The notes beneath the pieces were generated by a model. That model was not told where the DNA came from and made no database searches. It saw only the letters and a program-made list of their open reading frames with translations. Of a DNA stretch of 37,517 nt, positions 3,975-36,273 are shown piece by piece. The position numbers and the translations under genes are program-made. The DNA comes from Reclinomonas americana ATCC 50394 (taxonomy: Eukaryota), in NCBI GenBank assembly GCA_048213135.1, contig PS015549.1:1-37517 (forward strand), given 5' to 3'. The stretch's first letter is position 1, and the number at the start of each line of letters is the position of its first letter.

Positions 3975-4878
3975 CTTCCTCTCGCTGAACACGCTTGCCT
4001 TGTAGGTTCGTGCGCAACAAGTTCGTTCCCGGATCATCGACACAAGATCAGATCCTGCTCGACTTTCTCTTTGGCAACTTGTGGTGCGTCTCTCTCCCTC
4101 TCTCTGCCTCACTCACTCACTGACTCACTGCACGCACACACAGTCACGCACTGAGCAGCGAGTTCACCAACGACAAGGTGTCGGCGTTCTTCAGCGTGCT
4201 GAGAAAGACTCACGAGTTGACTGTTGGTGCGCTCTCTGTGTGTGTGTGGCCTCCTGTGCTTGCCTCGGCCTCTCATGCCTCCGCGCACGCACATGCAGAG
4301 CATCAGTATAGCCTGGAGGAGAGTTTTGCGGCCTTCAAGCGTCTCCTGCTGCAGCACAGCGTGCACAGACCACCGTTCAGCGTGGAGGTGTTTTCGCTGC
4401 CGGAGGTGGAGGATGTGACGGGCTACGCGCTGTCGACGTACTTTAAGCACTACAAGCTGTACGCGTTTGCCTTTCTGCAAAAGGTGGAGCTCGACTTCTC
4501 CGCCGTCTCCAACGAGTTCACGGAGAAGCCGGCGCCACTCATGCCGCTGAGGAGAGCAGTGCGGTGGACCGACCCGCTGTTGTTGTTGTTTGCTTGCTTC
4601 TCACTGTTTTTCTGGTGCAGATCACGGAGAGCGACTGGAATGCACGCCGGGCAGAGGAGGCACGTCTGGCTGAGGAGGATCGGCAACGGAGGGAGGCGGC
4701 TGCCGAGCAGGAGGCCAAGCGACTGGCTCAGCTGGCGGCTGAGGAGGAGGCGAAACAGGCACGAGGCGGTTTGTCGGCCGAGGAGCTGCGGGAGGAGTTC
4801 CGACTGCTGGCACTGGCGCGCATTGCCGAGCTGGAGGGTAGAGTGCAAGACTTGGAGAAACAGGTCAAGGTCAAGTGA
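3653..4878 (+). CDS. CFAP119: Central-pair C1a-32/CLAMP-domain flagellar protein (CFAP119/CCDC189 family)
   Basis: Exons 3653-3762, 4006-4083, 4144-4226, 4299-4558, 4621-4878, all in phase. Motifs ILLDFLFGNL, FKRLLLQHSVHRPPFSVEVFS and STYFKHYKLYAFAF, then a coiled-coil tail. Confidence 0.85.
3910..3972. repeat. (CA)n microsatellite in CFAP119 intron 1
   Basis: About 31 perfect CA units. Representative of the many CA/GT and GA/CT tracts in introns. Confidence 0.95.
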
Positions 4879-4973
4879 GCGTTCTGTATTCTGCCCCTGC
4901 AGACGCACACACGTCCTCGCCGGTCATTGTACACAAGCCATCCATATGGGTGTATGCGACGAATTTGAGGTCC

Positions 4974-5732
4974 TCACTTGTTCTTCTTGCTGGCGGCCTT
5001 CTTGTGGCCAGCTGGCTTGTTGAAGTAGAGCACGGCGCTCACGCCCATGTAGTAGGGCACCCAGAACCAGGTCACCAGCGAGCCTAGCGGGAACGTCCGC
5101 ATGGTGATCCAGGCCTTGGCCAGTGCGCCGACCATCATACCGGCGGCAACCGACTTGGTGGTGTGCTCATTCACTTTGATCCTGTTGGGAGAGGGAGGCA
5201 AGGCTCACTCTGGTGAGCAGCGGTGGTGGACGCACTCACACGTGGTGGTGCGCTGCAGACGCAACACGGCGAGGACGGAGGCACCGAAGAGAAGCATCGA
5301 TCCACACGCCTGCAATATATGGGGGGACGACGAAATCAGACTGAAGGAGGACGTGGTGGAGCGGGAGGGAACAGGTACAGCAGTCAGCGCTACCTACCTG
5401 CATGAGATGCACAAACTCGGGAGTGATGCCCACCACACCTGCACGAAGAGAGAAAATGATCACATGCACGATTCTTTTTTTCTTTTCGTTTGCAAGCACG
5501 TGCACTGCGCGCAACTGCTGAACATGATGTGGCTGGCCACCTCGGGCACCACAATGCACATGAGGCCCATCGCCAGCCTGGAGATATCGACACCAGAAAT
5601 CAGAAAAACAAAAAAGGGAAAACGAGCCGGAAGGGAAATGTAGGTGTTCGCTTCGCCCGGTAATTGACAGAAGACAACGCACCAAAGCACACTCGTGAGC
5701 AAGAAACAAGGTCGCACCAAAGCCGCTGTCAT
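4974..5732 (-). CDS. Small 4-TM membrane protein, paralog 1 (142 aa)
   Basis: Exons 5732-5683, 5577-5516, 5438-5398, 5309-5242, 5181-4974 in phase. Four hydrophobic segments and a basic tail (KKAASKKNK). Confidence 0.72.
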
Positions 5733-7832: not shown

Positions 7833-9715
7833 TCAGTAAGAAGTCTTGCTGGTGGCGGTGGCCATGGTGATGGTGTGAGCAGCCGGCGCGCGGTAAGCAG
7901 GCTGCGGTGGAGCTGGATTCCACTGCTGCGGCGGGGGACCACCGCCACCGGGAACGGAGGGAGGCAAAGCGCCTCGCCGCTGAGCCTTTTCTCGTTCAAG
8001 TGCCGGGAGAATGTTCTGCGAGCGACCAATGAGGAGACAACTCGAGGGACGAAAGAAAGGGGTGAGTGTGGTGAAACACACGTAATGTGCATGCTGAAGT
8101 GATGCCTGCAACTCGGCGATCAAGCGGCGCGTGGCACTCGTGTCCAGGCCGACTGCCTCCTGAGCGCGCAGATTCTCCTCCTGGTAGGCCATCTTGTAGG
8201 TGCCGCGAAGCAGTTGGTTGGTCAGGTACCTGCACGTGCATGTGAGTGGGTAACAAGCGAGATGGCGAGTGCAGGTGGGAAGACGACTCAACGCCCACGG
8301 AATGGTGACCGAGTGTTGTTGGATGTCGGCTGAGAGGGGGAATGGAGTGTGAGCTTGTACATGTGTGGAGAACGAGGAGAAGGCGAGAAGTCGAAAAACG
8401 AACCGATGCCAGGAAGAATTCGTCGCCACGCTTCCTGCGGTGCACAGGTGAGCATTATCACAACGACAAGACAATACCACTGATGGTCACCTTGAACACC
8501 TGACAGAGAACGATGAGCAACAACGGAGTGCTAATAAGCACAAGCCACTGAATGATGACAGACCTCACTGCCCATTGGCGGCGCCGTGGCTTGCAGCTCG
8601 ACTGTGAGACAGCGGCCGGTCTGTACGAACAGCGAGTTGAGCAACGCTGGGGATGTCCACTCAAGCAGCATGCTTTGCCTCGACGCAACGCGGACGATAA
8701 AGTCGGGGTTGGGCGGACCCATCTCTCGAATCTGCCGCTGCAGATGTGCGCACACCTCCGCCGGGTCGTCTGTGCGTCGTGTGTGCCCAGTTAATGCCAC
8801 ACACGCACCACGCAAGACACATCCACCCAACACACACACATACCAGAGACCCATCCACGGAATCTCGTGCGGTCCTCCTCGCTCAACGCGGCCAGCACCG
8901 CTTCACCCGGATCAGTCGGTGGTGCATGTGCCATCTCGTGAATGACATGTACATGGGTGCATGTTGCCGGCGTGACGTCTGCACGCCATTGTCAACAGAA
9001 TAGGAAAGGGGCATCGTGAAAGAGGCAAAAAGAGCGAACCGTGGTGTTCGCGGTGGTTACGGCGACCGACGAGGCGATTGACGCTGGTCACGACGCCTGC
9101 ACCCGATCGCCAAGAATACAGTTGAGCCGAGACAGGAGATGGAGGAGGGAGAGAGAGAGAGGAAAGACGGCGCAACGTTGCATGCTGTCCACGCCAAAGC
9201 CCTGCATCGACCTGGCCAGTACGTGCGTCTGACCATCGCTGTACAACAAGAGGAGTCAGCGATGGAAGAGAGAAGAGAGCGGAGAGAAGGAGGGGAACCT
9301 TTTGGTAAAGTGAATGCCCATCGTCCGGCCGTGTTTGCGGGAGTACGCGCAGTGGAAGTTCGCTCCATTGACATCTACGCGTGCGTGTGATTACTGCATG
9401 ATGATGAATGCATCTGTCTATCTCACACGCAACTCTCAATGTCTGACTCGCCCGAGCCGCAGCAACTGCAGCAGCACACGGGGTCCTTCTTCACGTGACA
9501 GTGGCCAGTGCGGTCGAGGTCGTACGTGTCAGTGGTGCTGCGCAGCATGAGAGAAAGACTGAGGGAGAGAGAGAGAGAGAGAACACAGAGACTAACCAGC
9601 AAAAGTATCCGAGTCCGCACGAGAAGAGAATGGAGAAGCAGTGCTCGTAGCAGCCGATGCCCACTTGGAAACGCACATGTTGGTCGTCCTCTTCCAGAAT
9701 GTCGTAGTTGACCAT
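7833..9715 (-). CDS. Uncharacterised Cys-rich protein with Pro-rich tail, copy A (about 13 exons)
   Basis: MVNYDILEEDDQHVRFQVGIGCYEHCFSILFSCGLGYFCC|TTDTYDLDRTGHCHVKKDPVCCCSCCGSGESDIE|...|TNQLLRGTYKMAYQEENLRAQEAVGLDTSATRRLIAELQ...KTSY*. Exon-by-exon homology to copy B validates the exons. Confidence 0.8.
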
Positions 9716-10571
9716 GGCGCGAGGGAGAGCGAGTTAAAAAGTGTGTCTGAATTCGGTGAATATTCCGGGATAAACCGGTCAACTGACGTCGCTTGGCCTG
9801 TACCACTGCTCTCTATCTGTAGTCCTGGTAGAAGGGAAGCGAGCGATGCAACTCGAATTCGAATTGCAGCTGACGAAATCGATCGATAGATATCGCGAAT
9901 ACTAATACGAAGCTCGACCGCGCAGAATTCGAGTCAGCAACAAGCAGCAACAGCTGCGTTGGTAACAAAGTAGAGCTGTGATCAACATAGACATCAGTCC
10001 TGACGGGCACAGTGGAGTTTCTTTCGACTCGCTCATGGAGCTGCGAATTCGAATAAATTCGAAAACCTGCGCGAATGCACGCAGAAAGCCCTTGTGCCAC
10101 AAAGCCAGGCGATTGGTTCGCTGTTTGGACTGGGCTGCACGTGGCTCATCGAGGCAGCTGCTGCATCAGTCGGAGCGTTCATGGCGATAAACCGTTCGCG
10201 AACCCCGAGCTCCATATTGCAGTTGCAGATCCGGATCCAGTTTCCACCTTTCCGATCGTGCAAGTCGGGGTTCCTCTCCCAGAACGCCAAGACTTTCTCC
10301 TTCGCTGTTCGGGCGATGCATTGCTCAAGGGCCGCGTCCGCGATGAGCTGTCGGAAAATTCCCCGCGGATATCCGCACATACTTCGTCTTANNNNNNNNN
10401 NNNNNNNNNNNNNNNNNNNNNNNNNNNNNNNNNNNNNNNNNNNNNNNNNNNNNNNNNNNNNNNNNNNNNNNNNNNNNNNNNNNNNNNNNNNNNNNNNNNN
10501 NNNNNNNNNNNNNNNTCTCTCTCTCTGTGTGTGTGTGTGTGTCTCTCTCCCCACACTCACATGCTGCGCAG

Positions 10572-12575
10572 CACCACTGACACATACGACTTGGATCGCA
10601 CTGGTCACTGTCATGTGAAGAAGGACCCGGTGTGCTGCTGCAGTTGCTGCGGCTCGGGCGAGTCAGACATTGAAGGTTGCGTGTCTGTGCGAGAGAGTTG
10701 AGAGAGAAAGAGAGAGAGAGAAAGAGAGATGTGTATGTGTGCGTGCATTGATGATCAGGGATTCGGTTGCTCATGCATGGATCGCAGATGTGAACGGCGC
10801 CGACTTCCACTTCTCGTTCACCCGCAAAGGCGGCCGCACAGCGGGCATTCACTTGACCAGCGGGTGCGCCCTCTCTTTCTCCCTCTCTTAACCTCTCGTC
10901 TCCTGCGCACTCACTCGCGGATTGGCAGTGACGGCCAGACTCACCGATTGACGAGGTCGATGCAGAACTTTGGCGTGGCCGGCATGCAACGTTGCGCTTC
11001 CTCCCTCTCTGTTCTCTTCCCTCTCTCTCTTGGTGTGGCTCAACCGCTCCTTGGCGATCGCTGCAGGCGTCGTGAACAGCGTCAACCATCTTGTCGGCCA
11101 CCGCGATCGCTTCGGTTTGTCCCCGTTTATGACGCACACGCGCGCGCTCTCTCTCTCCTTTACCCTTCTTCTTCTGTTCTCACCCGTCATCTTTGCTATT
11201 GTGCAGGGATCACGACAACGACTCACGTTTCCGACATTTTGCGGCACGCCGATCGCGAGATGGTGCACAGGGACCCGGGCGAAGCAGCGCTGGCCATGTT
11301 GACCGACGAGGACCGTACCAAGTTCCGCGCCTGGGTCACTGGTGCGTGTGGCGATGTGCAAATATCTGGACCAACGCTGGTGTGTGGCATTAACTTGGTG
11401 GCGGCGCGCACAGACGATCCGATGGAGGTGTGCACGCAGCTGCAGCGACAGATTCGAGAGATGGGTCCACCCAACCCCGACTTTATCGTCCGCGTTGCGT
11501 CGGCATGAGAGAGCCACTTGCATGCCCCTTCCCAGTTTTCTTATCCAGTGCGTGCAGGCGGATCGCTGCCTGACGATCGAGCTGCAAGCCACGGCGCCGC
11601 AAATGGGCAACCAGGTTTGTCGTTCTGTGCTTGTTATGTTGTTTTGTCTTCTGGGTGTTGCTCATCCGCGTGCTGTGGCAGGTGTTCAAGGTGACCAATC
11701 ACGCCAGTTGACGGGTCATTGTCGTCGTGCTGAAGCTCACCCTCTCGTTGTGCACCGCAGGAAACGTGGCGACGGATCCTCCCGGGCATCGGTGAGTCGG
11801 CAGAGATCTTGCTTTTTATTCATGCATGCTCACTCTGTGCATTCCTGCCCCTGTCAGTTGACATTCAGGAGAACTCTGTCACCATTCCCTGGAAGTTGCG
11901 TCTTCCAACCTCTCCTTCTCTCAGGCTGCACATGTTCTCTTTTCCTCTATTCTCTTTCATTCTTCTTTCTCTCATTGTTTTCTTCACCTCTCTCTCTCTC
12001 GGATCTTCCCTCTCAATCCTCTTTGCTGTCACTGACATTCACCAACTCTACACCCAGCTGTTCTCTGTGTTTGTTGTTTTTCTTTCTGGCCACTCATCCA
12101 ACTCACACGCACGCGTGCAGGAGCATGACCAATCAACTGCTCCGCGGCACCTACAAGATGGCCTACCAGGAGGAGAATTTGCGCGCCCAGGAGGCAGTCG
12201 GCCTCGACACGAGTGCCACGCGCCGCTTGATCGCCCAGCTGCAGGTGTCGCTGCAGTACTCGCACCAGGTGAGTTTGTCTTGGCCCCGTTTTTTTTTTCT
12301 TGATGCCGTGAGCTCGTACGCCTCACTTTGTCGCATGCCACTGGCAGCACATTCTTCCGGCACTCGAGCGAGAAAAGGCTCTGCGGCAAGGTGCACCGCC
12401 GCCCTTTGCGCCAGTGCCTGCCGGCGTGCCACCGCCACCGTACGCCACAGCACCCCCGCCTCCGCACTACGCGAGCGCGCCACCGCCACCGCAGCCAGTC
12501 TACGGCGCGCCGGAAGTCGATGTCACCACGTACTCCACCACGTACTCCACCACCACGACCACCACCACCAAGTGA
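10572..12575 (+). CDS. Uncharacterised Cys-rich protein with PPxY tail, copy B (exon 1 lost in the N-gap)
   Basis: Inverted paralog of 7833-9715 with the same intron positions. Ends ...VPPPPYATAPPPPHY...TTTK*, TGA at 12573-12575. Confidence 0.8.
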
Positions 12576-12918: not shown

Positions 12919-15783
12919 ATGGGCAGCCCACGCACACCACGCGATGCAGTCACCACTGCCGACGGCACTGCTGGCGGTCCCAGTGGTAGCGGCAGTGCTC
13001 GCTATCGCCAGAAGCGCACATTGCGTATTGGCGTTGGCGCGCTCAGTCGCCCCATGGCCGCCGTCCTCCTCATTCTCACCCTCGCCATCTTTGCTGTGTG
13101 CGCGGCATCGCTGGCCTCGCAGCACTGGGTGTTGCGTGTGTGTGTGTGTGTGAGCTGCATGTGTGCAATCATCATCCTCATCTCTCTGCTGCAGCAAGAG
13201 GGATTGCCCTGACGAGTCGTTCACACACCTCGGTCTGGTCGACGGGTGCGTATGCGCAGAGGCCGACGTATGAGAACTGTCACAGCACTCATTCGCGCTT
13301 TGCTTCACAGGTACATCTGCCTCCCGTTTGGCCCGTTGCGTTTTGCAGAGTCATTCTTGTGCTCTCTCTCTCTCTTCCCTCTCCTCGCTCACTCGCTGCT
13401 CCCACACAGTGACGGTGGCCCCAAGACCTTTGTGTGCTCCCCCTTTGACACCACCATCGTCTCGTCGCTGAAGGCCAACAAAACGGTGAGTGCATCATAT
13501 GACCTGTGCAAGATTCTCTCTTCGCGGTAGCAGTTGTTGGAGCATTGGTGTCGTGAGTGGTGCGGCCGCGTGTCGATGCGCGCGCACTTCCTTCGCCCTG
13601 TCTAGTCGCTGCGCGCGCGCTTGCCGGCGCGCGTTCTCTCTCGTAGTATGTTTGTTGTTGTTGGCCAAGTGTTTTCAGATTTCGTGTCCGTTTCCTGTGT
13701 TGGCGCGAGATTGAGTGCACGTCGAGGTGGGCTGTGATGTGCTTCAGTAGCTGCAGTTGGGATGACAGCGAAAGGGGGGGGCGCGAAGGCGCTGAGAAAG
13801 CCGCACTGGGAGCTGTGACTGTCAGTGGTGTTCGATTTCGGTGGGGATCTTAAGCTTCTCTGCGTTGTGTGTTCCTTCGCGTGCCTGTCATCGTCGAGAC
13901 TCCTTCACTACCAGTGCCTCGGTGCACTGTCGGCGTGTGTCAGTTTGATATTCTCTTCTCTCCTGCTACTACTTGCTGCAGTTGATCATGAGCATGTACA
14001 TTCCGTGTTCACTACAACGAGGATGTGGAGAGGGCGCTCTACTCTGCATGAGAGAAGGAAGATCGGACCTCCCATCTCCTTCTTTGCGATCCTCACCTTC
14101 TCCCTCTCTTTTATCAGACCAAGGGCCTCGGTGCCACTGGCGTCGCCCTCACCGGCCTCCTTGTGTTTGCCCTCGTTGCGTACCTGATCAAGCCGTTGGC
14201 GCCCATCAAGTGGACTGTCGTGGTACGTGCCTTGTGCTTTCAGCGACCAGCAAACTTTCAGTCGTTTGTGACACACATCCCTTTTGCAGACGATTGCCTT
14301 CCTCGCCTGGCTGGTGAGGTCGCTTGCCTTTGCCATGTTGGTCTCTTCTCGTTTCACTCATTGTTCCTCAAAGTTCTGCATGACCACGGCTGCGTACTAC
14401 ACGGCCAACGCAGACCGATCGGCCTCGTGCGCCACAGTGGCCATGGTGAGTCCTCTTTCCCTCCTTTCCTTCTTCGTGAGCCAGCGCCGCCAAAACTCTT
14501 TCCGCTGTAGGGCTTCGCCTACGACTGGGGCTACATTGTGTTCTGGACGTTTGGCTTCGCACTGCTCTTCATTGTCTTCTGCCTCTCCCTCTCGCTGGAG
14601 GGCGTGCCTCTCGACGATGCCAACACCGTCAAATCGCCCATCTCGCCAATGCCCAACGCGTTCACCGACATTGAGGCAAATGCACCCAGCGGCGAGTATG
14701 CCAATGCGCCGGCCGGTAGCTGGCTGTGGATGGCCGGCATGCTGCCGACGCTGCGCACCGATGAAGACCAGGAGCGTCGCAATGCCATGTTCAAGAACTT
14801 TGACACCACCGGCAATCGAATGTTGTCGTTCAACAAGATTGACGTTGCGTGCGAGTGCACAAGTTTGCTGCACCCTTGCATCGGTGTCCCCTCATACTCT
14901 CCTCCAACAGGTTGGCTTCATGTCCTACCTGCGTCTGAATCACGAGCAGCGGCGTCAGCTAAAGCCCGCCATGCAAAACTCATTCCACGCCGCTCGCAAG
15001 TTCATCCACACACCGACTCCCGAAGGCGGCTTCCCCAATGGCAACGATCCGAACGACTTTGTGATGCGGGTGCGTGTCACTTGGCGTGTGTCTGATCATC
15101 TCTGACTTTGTTTCTCACCACACTCCATCTGTGCAGAAAGCATTCCGTATTTTCCTCAGCTGTTTCCAGCTCAATCTCGAGCTGCTCCATGTTGCGTGGC
15201 GGTGTGCCAACATGAATGTAGGCGCTGCGTTTTCACCTTGCGACGCTGGCAACACAGGTGTGGGACGAGATCAATGGTGGTTACGAGGGCGCCACCGACC
15301 GCCGTCTCACGTTCGAGACCTTCAACCGATTCTTCCCCAAGCTGGAGAAGTACGGCTACGTTTCCAACGGTGAGCTGGCATTGCCTTGTGAGGTGTCATG
15401 TCTTATGTCTCTCCCACTCATGCGCACTTGCTGGCAGATCCTGTGCAAGACTTCAGCGACATCAAGAAGGAGCGAGAGAGTTGAGTTTGCCTGTGTCACT
15501 GCAAGGAACAAGAACGCTTGTCCTCTTGCTCACATTCATACTACATCCCATACAGGCAGCGGCGTGGTCACCTTTGATGAAGTGCGTGCACTTGCCCACT
15601 GTGGTCTTGTTTGTTCTGTGACCTCATTCGTTTGTCTTCCCTCATGCAGTTCGCCACCTGGGCCACCTCCAAGAATCGAGTGCGTCGCGCCTCCTTCATC
15701 GCTCCCCCTCATCTCATCGCTCACCTAATCGCCCACAGGACCTCCACGATGTCGACTACGCCAACACGGAGCGCTACTTTTAG
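12919..15783 (+). CDS. Claudin/PMP22-like 4-TM protein fused to an FCaBP/calflagin-like EF-hand domain
   Basis: Exons 12919-13130, 13195-13245, 13311-13334, 13410-13485, [13486-14117 unresolved], 14118-14222, 14290-14313, 14374-14445, 14511-14843, 14911-15069, 15137-15190, 15258-15369, 15438-15479, 15556-15581, 15650-15679, 15739-15783. Claudin signature: ASLASQHW...HLGL...C...C and YDWGY before TM4. C-terminus is FCaBP-like: RRNAMFKNFDTTG...FRIFL...PKLEKYG...DP...F...GVVTFDEFATWA. Confidence 0.78.
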
Positions 15784-15858
15784 CCACAAACTTTCTCGTG
15801 CGCGTCACTATGCATATCCAATCAATACCCAAAACAATAAACAATATAAGTACAACAA

Positions 15859-17965
15859 CTACTCTTGCAACGACTGACGCGTCTCTCTTTGCCACTTGGC
15901 GCGCTGCGCATATCCCTGCCGTGGTGGTGGCGTAGTGGCCAGCATCGTCCGCGGCGATCGCGGTGATTGCGGTGGCGACAAGATGGCAGTGTCGGTGACA
16001 TCGATCATGGATGCCGTGGCAGCCACCAGGTCGCGTGCACTCAGCGGCGGCACCAACGCCGACGCTCGTCGTGCAAACGAGGACGAGGCAGCTGACGACA
16101 CGGTGTGTGCCGCGTAGCGCGGTGACGCCGGACCACGATGCGTGTACTCCTGTGGAGGCGGTGGTGGTGGTGTTGGCGATGGTGAGGGTGCGACACTCGG
16201 TCGCGGCGACACGGCATCGCTGCTCTGGCGTCTTCGGTGCGCGCTGTTGGTGGGAGTCGGCGATTTGCTAGGCAGTGGCGACGGTGAGGGTGAGCGGATG
16301 CCGCCGGCACGCGACGACGATCGCGACGACATGGAGCTGCGCTCCTCAATGTCCGCCTGTTCCTGCATCCGCCGAAAGTCTGCCATGGTCTGCAGCGGCT
16401 GCTGCGGATCATTGAGTGCGCCTTCCGAGGCCGACGGGAGACGCAGATTTGGAACCACCACTCCAGAGACCACTCGCGGCGCCGACGAGGATGGAGTGGA
16501 GCGTGGTGGCCTGTCGCCCGACGGAGTCGACGAGCGGGGAGTCAGTGATGGAGGTGGCGGTGGCAAGAAGGAGGGTGGCGGAGTTGAGGCCCCGCGAGGC
16601 GAGTACAAGCGCTGTGCGTGGGGAAATGAATCAATGTGAAGAAGGAGAGAAAACAGAAATATTGCACGCCAACCTCTCGTACGGGTGAATCGCGCATGTA
16701 GGACGCCGGTGAGTCGGCTCCCTGTGCAAGCATGAGAGTAGTGAGTCCAGAGAGCATTGATGTGCGTCGAAGCAGCGCTGGAGGAGGTAACCATTCGATT
16801 CCTGTGGCCTGGATCGCCACCCTGCGACCGTCACGAACGTGAGCCAGCCGCTTTCACGAGGAAAGCACAGTCGTCGCACGCAACAACGTTCTCCTCCAGT
16901 CGACTGCGCAGCAGCAGGACCTCGGTTTGCGCCGCACTGGCCTCCACTAGCGCCATGGACAAGTCGCGCTGCAGGTTTTGCAAGTCGCGGGTGGTCGACT
17001 GCAATTGCTCCAACACTGAATCCAACTGCGTAAAATAGAAAGAGAAGCCGTCAATGAAGAGCTCGGCTGTGCTGTGTCATTCCCCCCTTTGCCGCACTGC
17101 ACCTGCTTGGATCTGCATTGTACGAGTGGTGAGTTGAAGACAACTGTATCTGTTTTGAAGAACGCTCACCTCGCATCGGCCTGCCTCAACTGCGACTGCA
17201 GCGCATCGATGGTAGCGTTCTTTTGCGACAGGAGCATATCGCGTCTGTGAACGCACACCCGCTCATCAGATGGCGGAACCAGTCGCGAGGGGCAACGACA
17301 TACGCGCAACTGTTGTCTCTCCTCCGTCCACAGCTTCTGCCGACTCTGCAGTGCCTCGTTGTCGGTCTCCAGCTGCAACAGCCGCTGCCGCAGCGCCTGG
17401 ATCACCTGCGCCGCATCGCCTCCGTTGACCTCCATCTGCTCTTGGCTGCCCTTGATCGGCGACAACACAAACGACTGACTGCCATTGCTGCTGCTCGTCA
17501 TCATCGACAGTGCCGGTGCTTTCAACACGGCGTCCACATCGATCCACGACGACACATCGTGCCGGTCCGTGCTCAGTTCGTCGTCATCATCATCGTCCTG
17601 ATCTGTGTCATCGTAGTCCACCAGTCGCTGCACCGGAGACAGGGCGACTGAGTTGCTGACGACTGTCAATGAGTGTGGCGGTGGTGGCGGTAGTGGTGGT
17701 GGCGGAGGCGGAAGCGACGGCACTCGCATGGCGTCACTGTTGCTCAGCGTGGTGTCGAGCAGCGGTGGTGGTGGTGGCGGGAGGGGGTGTGTCCGCAATG
17801 AGGGAGGTGGTGGCGATGGCGACGAGGAGACTGAGCGTATAATTGATTGGGTGAGCGGAAAGAAGACAAGGCCGGCGGAGCGAGTGACGTGCCTGGCGGT
17901 GTGGTCAGTGTGCGGAAGCGCTCCATGAACTGCGCCTTGCGCAGCGAGAGGCTTGGCGAGGCCAT
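15859..17965 (-). CDS. Hypothetical coiled-coil, Pro/Ser-rich protein
   Basis: ATG at 17965. Exon 17965-17893 (GC donor) and a large exon from 17830. Heptad-rich segments IQALRQRLLQLETDNEALQ and LEQLQSTTRDLQNLQRDL. Long terminal ORF to the stop at 15859. Some internal junctions are uncertain. Confidence 0.6.
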
Positions 17966-21502: not shown

Positions 21503-22571
21503 TGCGGAGGGGCTCCGGCGAAAAAATAACGTGCGTGAGAAGATTTCGGAGGACATGCAGGGGACATGCCGCTGGAGATGGCTTGGATGGCGTCTGCAGC
21601 GGGGGCGCATGTGCGGCGAGGTGTGTGACCATTCAACACACGAGTCCACCCTCCTTGGCTCGACGCTGACGCTGAAAAAGCCAACGTCGAGGAAAGAATT
21701 CGACCGACACGCTGCAGGCTGCTGCGCGATGCCGGCTCTCCATCGGCAAAAGCACACAGCTGTGATCTCTCACCCATCCTTTCCCTTCTTCAACTGCATG
21801 CTCGACCTCTCCGGGCAACGTCGAGCGGGGCGCTTTCAGACGAGCGCCATGTGCACATTCACATCACGCACCCACCTTCACCACGCCCACCTTCTCTCGC
21901 GCCGCCCCAGCGCCGCCACGCCCGCCGCACTTGGATCTGGGCACGATTGCACCTTATGCCGAGCTTCGAGTCACGCGCCACGGTGCAAACACAGCATTGA
22001 ACGATGCGACGAAATATCTCGCGATTGCGATCGAGCCCACAAGCGGCGACCGAGTGCGCGACAGCATAAGAGGCGGCGCGGCACACCATTGCAACCTATT
22101 GAAGCGATTATACTCGCAAGGATCTAATGATTAGGCGAGTTGTTCCTTCTGTGTTTCTCTAAAGAGACACTTTCCTCAGCCCCGACGATGATAGTCGCCT
22201 CCCACTTACCTGCATGAGGTCTGCTGACACCCGTTTCTTATGGAGCGTGGTGCTCAGCAACGAGGATTGCACGCACTGTCGTAACTGACTGGTGTGAGGT
22301 GGTGAGGGTGACTGAGGGGCCGGGGATCTTTTTTTGTGGATTATGAAAGCGAAAGAAAATTGTGTAAGGGAAGAAGCTTGATCGTCGCGTCAAGTTTACA
22401 CTCGAAACCCGTCAGCTACGCTGTCACATCTTTGTTCTGTCTGAGCACGCGAGAAGCCGACACGCCACTCTTCTCCACAAATCCTGTCATCGTCAGAGGC
22501 CGTGTTGGCGTGTTTTTGCTGAATTCTGGCGTCGCGAGAGAGAGAGAGACAATACCACCACCACCACCACC

Positions 22572-35656: not shown

Positions 35657-36273
35657 CTAGTCGGCGTACTGCACCTGCGTGCGTCGTATTCTCTTCTCCA
35701 CGCGCTGCGGCACCTCACTGCGCAACCACCTCTGCGCGCGCAACGGCCACACCACTGCCACCGCACGTCCATCCACAATACGCGCCGGCAGCGGCCCGTA
35801 CATGTTGGCATCGACCGAGTTGTCAGAGTTGTCGCCCTCCATCCACAGAAAGCCGGCGGGCACACGAACTGCACCGTGCATGGGCGCTGTGTCGGCGCGC
35901 ACAGCAACTACATCACCGGGCGTGGCGACTACGCGTTTGATCACATACTGCTCGGCGTTGAAGGGGTTGCGATAGGTGACCACATCGCCCACTCGCACGC
36001 ATCGATGTGCATCGGAGAATGGATAGTTCCACACAAGAACCCACTCGCGGCCTTGCTGCGGACCGTCGGGGTTGAGCGAAGGCCACATTGATGCGCCTCT
36101 GAGTGCGCGCGCAAGTGTGAGAAGCATGCAAGGAGGAGTGTGAGCGGGCGAGTAAGTGTGCGCAACTGCACAGGTGCGATCTGCACGACTTTGACGCGGA
36201 TCAGTTGCGCCAGAGGGTACACAATGGCGAATGTCTTAACAAACTCCACGCCAAACAGCAGCAACTGTCGCAT
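35657..36273 (-). CDS. IMP2: Mitochondrial inner-membrane peptidase subunit (S26, IMP2-like)
   Basis: Exons 36273-36167 and 36098-35657: GASMWPSLNP, GDVV, IKRVVATPGD, VPAGFLWMEGDN, YGP, AVVWP. Confidence 0.85.

Follow-up and report, generated by a model that had tools for sequence, protein, structure and literature searches.

A predicted nuclear gene of Reclinomonas americana ATCC 50394 encodes four putative membrane-spanning helices followed, in one reading frame, by a complete four-EF-hand unit of the family to which the flagellar calcium-binding protein of trypanosomes (FCaBP, also named calflagin) belongs. The gene occupies positions 12919-15783 of the + strand in a stretch of 37,517 nucleotides (nt) of draft eukaryotic nuclear DNA (contig PS015549.1, positions 1 to 37,517; hereafter the window), which has N gaps and a guanine-plus-cytosine (GC) content of ~57%. 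It is probably real and intact, and its product appears to represent a new domain arrangement, in which a member of a known cytoplasmic domain family is joined to an unclassified tetraspan; the arrangement is known from the window and from one metagenomic fragment, P0002, only. FCaBP/calflagin is an abundant protein of the flagellar membrane of trypanosomes, and to our knowledge its molecular partner and its mode of action are still unclear. We incline, with some reserve, to the reading that the R. americana gene encodes a four-helix integral membrane protein, which would hold a calcium-insensitive docking or scaffold module of FCaBP fold at the inner face of the membrane.

Results

A predicted membrane helix and the opening of an FCaBP-type domain share one exon

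The join between the membrane part and the EF-hand domain lies within a single open stretch of 333 nt (14511-14843, +), the seventh exon of the gene model, which is bordered by AG and GT, with ...ctttccgctgtag (ending in ctgtag) upstream and gttgcgtg downstream. Its one-frame translation, GFAYDWGYIVFWTFGFALLFIVFCLSL ... WLWMAGMLPTLRTDEDQERRNAMFKNFDTTGN, begins with a hydrophobic segment, taken as helix 4 (residues 217-235, window 14535-14591), continues through an acidic linker of 43 residues (236-278, window 14592-14720) and enters the FCaBP-type EF-hand domain, with WLWMAGMLPTLRTDEDQERRNAMFKNFDTTGNRMLSFNKID at its end. The initial annotation of this DNA had reported the helix and the domain start in one uninterrupted exon and had argued that the fusion is no artefact of splicing; both statements hold, the second because helix 4 and the domain start share that exon.

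An independent instance of the junction is provided by P0002, a 143-residue product encoded on a single metagenome contig of 721 bp in ENA, in which the order of helix, linker and domain is repeated. P0002 is 46% identical to exon 7 over the alignment, which takes in the end of helix 4 (LFIV), scattered positions of the linker and the start of the domain, and it diverges right after the same ...D at which the window has its splice donor, as would be expected of an intron at the same place. The alignment thus indicates the same junction in at least one other organism.

Apart from P0002, the searches yielded no relative with this architecture. An exhaustive search of 1.84 billion representative proteins with exon 7 gave six matches, namely P0001 (a spurious fish repeat protein), P0002 and four ordinary FCaBP proteins that align in the EF part only; no full-length relative was found in this search, nor in a word-index search of longer proteins with the same exon. 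Scans of metagenome and genome contigs with the alignment of exon 7 and P0002 gave 352 and 135 pattern matches, respectively, none of which was confirmed. We also compared hydrophobicity across 128 retrieved proteins, comprising 124 members of the FCaBP family, the unrelated P0001, P0002, and the 43-residue cluster fragments P0009 and P0011. One 19-residue window exceeding 1.6 is present in 12 of these proteins and two or more in none, compared with four in the model. No claudin-type Pfam accession occurs in the best 120 of the 165 proteins matched by a family profile (described below), and no such fusion is described in the literature matched on FCaBP/calflagin homologues and on claudin-like or tetraspan EF-hand proteins, among the matches listed; the papers matched on FCaBP/calflagin homologues all concern trypanosomes.

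The C-terminal tail is a complete FCaBP-family unit

The C-terminal ~190 residues of the product constitute a complete and collinear, if strongly diverged, four-EF-hand unit of the FCaBP family, as established by alignment with individual units, by the match to a family profile and by the ranking of known structures. The profile, of length 178, was built from 169 FCaBP units cut from the 124 retrieved family proteins. Residues 279-466 of the spliced model match its positions 3-174 of 178 with 119.8 bits and without a frameshift (E 9.5e-30 at a search space of ~1.84 billion proteins), while the best of 1000 shuffled versions of the tail attained 4.4 bits. Four clear members of the Pfam family PF22592 (FCaBP_EF-hand), P0003-P0006, score 140-237 bits against that family, the domain of which is followed in the FCaBP unit by a C-terminal pair of EF-hands; of the four, P0004 carries an annotation as Angomonas deanei flagellar calcium-binding protein. 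Model residues ~270-464 align with nine of the ten units in these four proteins at E 2e-8 to 4e-14 for the same 1.84 billion proteins as search space, and at E 1.4e-3 with the remaining unit, the second of P0006, which is cut off.

Single exons carry part of this signal. Exon 7 alone matches positions 4-38 of the 93 in PF22592 (E 2.3e-4), and its best match in PDB is Tb-24 of Trypanosoma brucei, at a non-significant E of 0.36; exon 8 matched nothing relevant there. A two-sequence profile made from exon 7 and P0002 ranks Tb-24 first (2LVV, E 0.003) and the FCaBP of T. cruzi second (3CS1, E 0.052), in each case at the corresponding N-terminal position. The initial annotation had stated that the remainder of the protein tracks FCaBP throughout, and the segments on which it relied (DFV, FRIFL, EL, VWDEI, PKLEKYG, DPVQDF and GVVTFDEFATWA) are all present in the translation. 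A separate PDB match of exon 10 to designed six-fold SAKe repeat proteins (15258-15368, apparent E 1.6e-8) was rejected as an artefact, in which six identical stretches of 4.8 bits (GGY-G..D) are summed.

PF22592 occurs across eukaryotes, beyond the trypanosomes. The profile search, for which 7,998 candidates were scored, gave 165 matches, 120 of them listed, at E 1e-5 or better; among the listed matches, besides Angomonas, are proteins of a diatom (Cylindrotheca fusiformis), a haptophyte (Prymnesium polylepis), a cryptophyte (Rhodomonas salina), a euglenid (Eutreptiella gymnastica) and a liverwort (Riccia fluitans). Within this range the model could not be tied to the trypanosomal members. 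A FastTree phylogeny places it as sister to a clade of Met-Gly-Cys (MGC)-acylated and kinetoplastid proteins at a weak support of 0.645, and on a terminal branch of 1.70 as against a median of 0.24. That clade holds Angomonas and eight of the ten proteins, among the 124 of the family, that begin with Met-Gly and carry a Cys in the five residues thereafter. A profile of the acylated clade scores the model at 89.5 bits, and all 20 random subsets of other units, of the same size, score it at 93-113 bits. Weak tree support, the long branch and these scores leave no demonstrable special link of the unit to the trypanosome type, and we conclude that it is a strongly diverged member of the wider family. 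The designation "trypanosome-type" in the initial annotation is therefore too narrow, given a family so widely spread, a weak placement and clade profiles that contradict it.

Consensus calcium ligands are substituted in three of the EF-hands

The same annotation had called the domain calcium-binding, a term that is difficult to reconcile with EF1, EF3 and EF4, the loops that are as a rule canonical, each of which has lost ligands at nearly invariant positions, 97-100% conserved in the 169 units. The EF1 loop of the model reads D-T-T-G-N-R-M-L-S-F-N-K (DTTGNRMLSFNK), with T at position 3 and K at position 12, where the 169 units have N in 159 at the former and E in 164 or D in 4 at the latter. 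EF3 has four extra residues, T at position 12 and a residue other than D at position 1; in the family it is free of insertions in 162 units, and has E at position 12 in 169/169 and D at position 1 in 163. EF4 has two extra residues and again lacks D at position 1, while 166 of the units are without an insertion there and 168 have the D. With the model aligned to the 169-unit profile and a loose criterion for a canonical loop, family units have one such loop in 10 cases, two in 88 and three in 71 (n=169), and the model has none. Likewise, the PROSITE EF-hand pattern PS00018 has no match in the model, compared with one to three in each of nine comparison units.

The defects of EF1 and EF3 are not artefacts of the splice model, because each loop sits wholly in one exon, and EF4 reads as non-canonical with its sole available donor and with either of two adjacent acceptors. 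Degeneracy of EF1 extends, by its sequence, to P0002, where the loop has I at position 3, R at 5 and Q at 12 and there is no PS00018 match. According to a published account of trypanosome FCaBP, EF3 and EF4 are the functional calcium sites and EF2 is unable to bind (PMC4824491). Since EF1, EF3 and EF4 each have substituted ligand positions, we infer that ordinary calcium binding by the tail has probably been lost or much weakened.

Four predicted helices and the claudin question

Four segments stand out in Kyte-Doolittle hydropathy (means 2.1-2.7), namely residues 47-65, 127-145, 155-173 and 217-235. They delimit an N-terminal tail of 46 residues with eight lysines and arginines, a first outer loop of ~61 residues, an inner loop of 9 residues with two (both lysine), and a second outer loop of ~43 residues. 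Six of the nine cysteines fall in the two predicted outer loops, three in each, and one in the 188-residue tail; the sole N-x-S/T sequon, NKT at residue 119, is in outer loop 1. These features suggest a topology of four helices with both termini in the cytoplasm and two outer loops, probably disulfide-bonded, of which the first is the larger.

As far as topology can be predicted, the layout matches that of claudins and PMP22, with four helices, termini inside and an outer loop 1 larger than outer loop 2, and to this extent the "claudin-like" label given to the membrane part in the initial annotation is apt. The label finds no counterpart in motifs or in matches of single exons. The strict claudin motif W..GLW..C-x(8-10)-C is absent from the model, in which a relaxed pattern of G-hydrophobic-hydrophobic..C-x13-C (GLVDGYIC, 13 residues, C) is found, and the 11-residue amastin signature C-[IVLYF]-[TS]-[LF]-[WF]-G-x-[KRQ]-x-[DENT]-C has no match there. 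Exons 1, 5, 6 and 7, taken separately as pieces of 35-111 residues, which afford poor sensitivity, matched no claudin-type Pfam family (PF00822, PF13903 and relatives) at E up to 10 and no claudin-type chain in PDB. The ESM Atlas gave nothing usable for exon 7, and for exon 6 only unnamed clusters at 0.80-0.81, a chance level.

Two other readings of the membrane part, as connexin-like or tetraspanin-like, were rejected by inspection of loop sizes and cysteine spacing against the features of those families. The N-terminus, MGSPRTP, holds no Cys, and the FCaBP unit is internal (279-466), behind the four helices, so that no Met-Gly-Cys motif directly precedes it. N-terminal myristoylation of MGSPRTP was also considered and set aside, as the sequence fails the PROSITE rule through the Pro after Thr6.

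Gene structure

The model comprises 14 exons and 474 codons and ends in TAG at 15781-15783. The initial annotation had given the range as 14511-15783, which captures the last eight of the 14 exons and misses the start of the gene at 12919. From exon 7, six upstream exons trace back to the ATG at 12919, and seven downstream exons join in frame through GT-AG introns of 59-76 nt. Overall, all 13 modelled introns have GT-AG borders and 12 of them measure 59-76 nt, with one of 632 nt. Exons 1-6 have a GC proportion of 0.745 at third codon positions and exons 7-14 one of 0.772, compared with 0.537 in the pooled short introns, so that both halves look coding in the modelled frames.

All exons lie on the + strand. 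Exon 1 (12919-13130) supplies the start codon, which is the first in-frame ATG past a stop and has A at -3 and G at +4, the basic N-terminal tail, and helix 1 (window 13057-13113; mean hydropathy 2.68). Outer loop 1 is then assembled from exon 2 (13195-13245; C75), which is positioned solely from its splice sites, its phase and the intron length, from exon 3 (13311-13334; C91), a micro-exon of 24 nt, and from exon 4 (13410-13485; C105 and the NKT sequon), which completes the loop and is followed by a GTGAGT donor. An alternative for exon 3 is that the next 75 nt (13335-13409), which stay in frame, are retained. To constrain this part of the gene, a splice filter was derived from seven introns supported by homology, combining their donor pattern, a YAG acceptor with a pyrimidine-rich run, and an intron length of 55-80 nt; it is somewhat strict, as two of these seven themselves fall under its 60% pyrimidine cut-off. 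With the filter, two models of exons 1-4 are left, with or without the 13335-13409 intron, both of which keep helix 1 and the reading phase.

Across the long intron (13486-14117), exon 5 (14118-14222) encodes helix 2 (window 14133-14189; mean hydropathy 2.24), the inner loop, in the region IKPLAPIKW, and the first part of helix 3. It has a strong, pyrimidine-rich CAG acceptor, and its open frame upstream (14052-14117) holds no in-frame ATG. Exon 6 (14290-14445) completes helix 3 (to residue 173, window 14290-14340) and encodes outer loop 2 with C181, C186 and C203, and exon 7 follows as described above. The remaining N-terminal half of FCaBP_EF-hand, with the EF2 region, is assigned to exon 8 (14911-15069) from the collinear alignment to FCaBP units. 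Exon 9 (15137-15190) encodes the FRIFL..LELLH helix, and exon 10 (15258-15369) the altered EF3 loop followed by the PKLEKYG segment. The EF4 loop begins in exon 11 (15438-15479; DPVQDFSDIKKERE), the donor of which is by its sequence the sole GT ahead of an in-frame stop, and it ends in exon 12 (15556-15581; SGVVTFDE). Exon 13 (15650-15679) encodes FATWATSKNR and exon 14 (15739-15783) includes the stop codon, downstream of which an AATAAA at 15836-15841 may serve as the polyadenylation signal. The sequence GTTGCG starts four of the 13 introns (at 13131, 13335, 14844 and 15191) and GTTGAG a fifth, the usual type being GTRNGT; the GTTGCG starts may be a signature of the lineage.

The intron at 13486-14117 is the weakest link of the gene model, and the join of exon 4 to exon 5 across it is accordingly put forward as probable. 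Neither an Rfam family (E up to 1) nor a tandem repeat nor a convincing exon was identified in it. The window holds no paralogue of the gene.

Genomic surroundings

Other features of the window bear on the nature of the source organism. An exon of the flagellar central-pair protein C1a-32 (4124-5020, +; Pfam CLAMP, E 5.6e-24) indicates that this organism builds flagella, although nothing ties the gene at 12919-15783 itself to them. An S26 peptidase exon (35660-36235, -) has only two matches in all, the better one to IMP1 of the chytrid Obelidium mucronatum at 42% identity, which suggests that the lineage is poorly represented in sequence collections. A U3 snoRNA gene lies at 22118-22320 (+) and matches the full-length model of Rfam RF00012 with 54.5 bits. 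The window further holds a histone deacetylase (26-27 kb, -), pieces of PAN2 (28.5-30.5 kb), an NFACT-R exon and a leucine-rich repeat exon.

Immediately upstream of the gene is a large inverted duplication (8074-9553 and 10556-12276) in which five inverted pairs, collinear and 72-163 nt long at 80-92%, flank an N gap; each arm has a small open frame with LLRGTYKMAYQEENLRAQEAVGLDTSATRRLIA that matches no Pfam family. On the other side, a convergent open frame (15859-16830, -) is rich in Pro and Ser, has no Pfam match, and ends ~75 nt from the stop codon of the gene.

Discussion

The arrangement described here is perhaps best understood as an alternative means of membrane attachment. In trypanosomatids, the FCaBP anchor consists of a myristate on Gly2 and a palmitate on Cys3 (PMC10939215). 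The four helices of the R. americana protein would do the job of that lipid anchor, so that the FCaBP-type unit, joined to them through the acidic linker of ~43 residues, would stay permanently at the membrane's cytoplasmic face. An integral anchor in place of acylation had been suggested in the initial annotation, and it fits a domain that begins ~43 residues past helix 4 and would thus be situated at the inner membrane face. The substituted ligands of EF1, EF3 and EF4 further suggest that the unit would not be a calcium switch but would serve a cytoplasmic or a membrane partner as docking or scaffold module, independently of calcium.

Several observations weigh against this interpretation. 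For the loss of calcium binding, the evidence consists of consensus positions; EF loops of a non-canonical type may still bind calcium, and EF4 keeps both the G of position 6 and the E of position 12. In the Pfam comparison, where single exons were scored, the 21.8 bits of exon 7 are below the PF22592 gathering score of 27 bits, and exons 8 and 10 have no match. When only open frames are considered and splice sites are left unconstrained, exons 1-4 can be drawn in 72,886 ways; the intron that follows them is roughly tenfold longer than the others, and in a region where neighbouring genes are ~75 nt apart (15783 versus 15859) a gap of 632 nt could be intergenic. Reads from four RNA runs, picked by species label, numbered 1, 0, 1 and 0 and included no joints, and so constitute no test of expression or of splicing.

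The first group of these points would be accommodated by a tail that is still a working calcium sensor, by means of non-canonical loops, in an otherwise identical protein, which would report or regulate calcium at the membrane and might be, for example, an auxiliary subunit of a channel, as the initial annotation had proposed. The likeliest such loop is EF4, E-R-E-S-S-G-V-V-T-F-D-E, which combines oxygen-bearing side chains at positions 1, 3 and 5 with G6, a hydrophobic residue at 8 and E12; moreover, the entire four-EF-hand unit has been retained without truncation, and members of the family in trypanosomes are calcium-dependent, according to PMC4824491. We nevertheless regard a sensor as unlikely, in view of an EF3 with a four-residue insertion and without the position-12 Glu that is found in 169/169 units, an EF1 with Lys at position 12, an EF4 without the position-1 Asp of 168/169 units, and the unmatched PS00018 pattern; nor is there any sign of a channel partner. 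The points concerning the long intron would instead be met by dividing the gene. Exons 1-4 (12919-13485) would then be a separate short gene with a read-through end at ~13530, and the FCaBP part would take its first exon from within 13486-14117 and encode three helices, or a different first helix, together with the tail. Such a division agrees with the contrast between 632 nt and the 59-76 nt of the other 12 introns, with the compactness of a region in which convergent neighbours are ~75 nt apart, and with the 11 candidate exons running from ATG to GT in phase 0 inside the gap, and the RNA reads decide neither way. Its probability is nonetheless low in our estimation. The phase-0 end of exon 4 lies at a perfect GTGAGT, and exon 5, likewise in phase 0, opens behind its strong acceptor without an in-frame ATG in the open frame it belongs to; the candidate first exons, all at least 288 nt from exon 5, would still need an intron of that length or more, and they are rich in Cys and Arg and without a hydrophobic helix. 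The third-position GC bias is common to exons 1-6 and 7-14, and four helices place the basic N-terminus and the EF-hand tail together in the cytoplasm, as three would not. An undivided gene with a calcium-insensitive tail thus continues to be the reading we prefer.

A further question cuts across all of these, namely whether the membrane part genuinely belongs to the superfamily of claudins, PMP22 and calcium-channel gamma subunits, or to the related fungal Fig1/SUR7 or kinetoplastid amastin groups, or else to another four-helix family. Membership, which would give a claudin-fold protein ending in an EF-hand tail, would be consistent with the greater length of outer loop 1 relative to outer loop 2, the very short inner loop, cytoplasmic ends and the cysteines of loop 1, as well as with the relaxed GLVDGYIC...C pattern and a helix 4 that opens with a stretch rich in aromatic residues, Gly and Trp. 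The absence of the strict claudin motif and of the amastin signature, and the lack of a Pfam or PDB match for the four helix-bearing exons and of any lead from the ESM Atlas, point the other way, although tests at the level of exons are weak; we consider membership conceivable, yet doubtful. More speculative still, and rather improbable in our judgment, is that the protein represents an undescribed class of claudin-fold tetraspans with a built-in FCaBP-type module, being or replacing the membrane partner of FCaBP/calflagin, one conceivable role being that of auxiliary subunit in a flagellar ion channel. If true, the FCaBP domain would have come to be tethered to the membrane twice independently in eukaryotes, by a lipid and by an integral anchor.

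The weight of the finding is limited by a single, fragmentary relative and by an expression that is predicted only. Within these bounds, it corrects the idea of the domain as specific to trypanosomes. The occurrence of the same domain on an integral anchor would imply that what matters is its placement at the inner face of the membrane, and the tetraspan is a candidate example of the membrane proteins with which the FCaBP domain works. The loss of ligands, in turn, suggests that the FCaBP fold can persist in a calcium-independent role.

Comparison with known systems places the protein between three groups, each of which it resembles in part. It shares with the FCaBP/calflagin of trypanosomatids (3CS1, 2LVV) a complete, collinear four-EF-hand unit and a membrane anchor on the N-terminal side of it. 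It differs in that the anchor there is a lipid (PMC10939215) and here would be four helices; in that EF3 and EF4 are described as functional there (PMC4824491) and have lost their consensus ligands here; and in its very long branch, without specific affinity to the acylated clade. The soluble proteins with single or tandem PF22592 units belong to the same domain family, and profiles made from them score the model at least as well as do those from units of kinetoplastid type. Among the matches listed, however, their additional domains are ankyrin, SHIPPO repeats, doublecortin and the like rather than membrane domains, and each of the 169 units has one to three canonical loops where the model has none. 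Claudins, PMP22, EMP and TARP proteins, as well as Fig1, SUR7 and amastins, have four helices, a large outer loop 1 that bears cysteines, and a cytoplasmic C-terminal tail that binds partners. With the claudin/PMP22/TARP group the R. americana protein would have in common the four-helix layout, the large first outer loop with cysteines and the very short inner loop, while it departs from that group in having three cysteines in each outer loop, in leaving the signature unmatched, and in carrying, as its cytoplasmic tail, a folded EF-hand unit of 190 residues.

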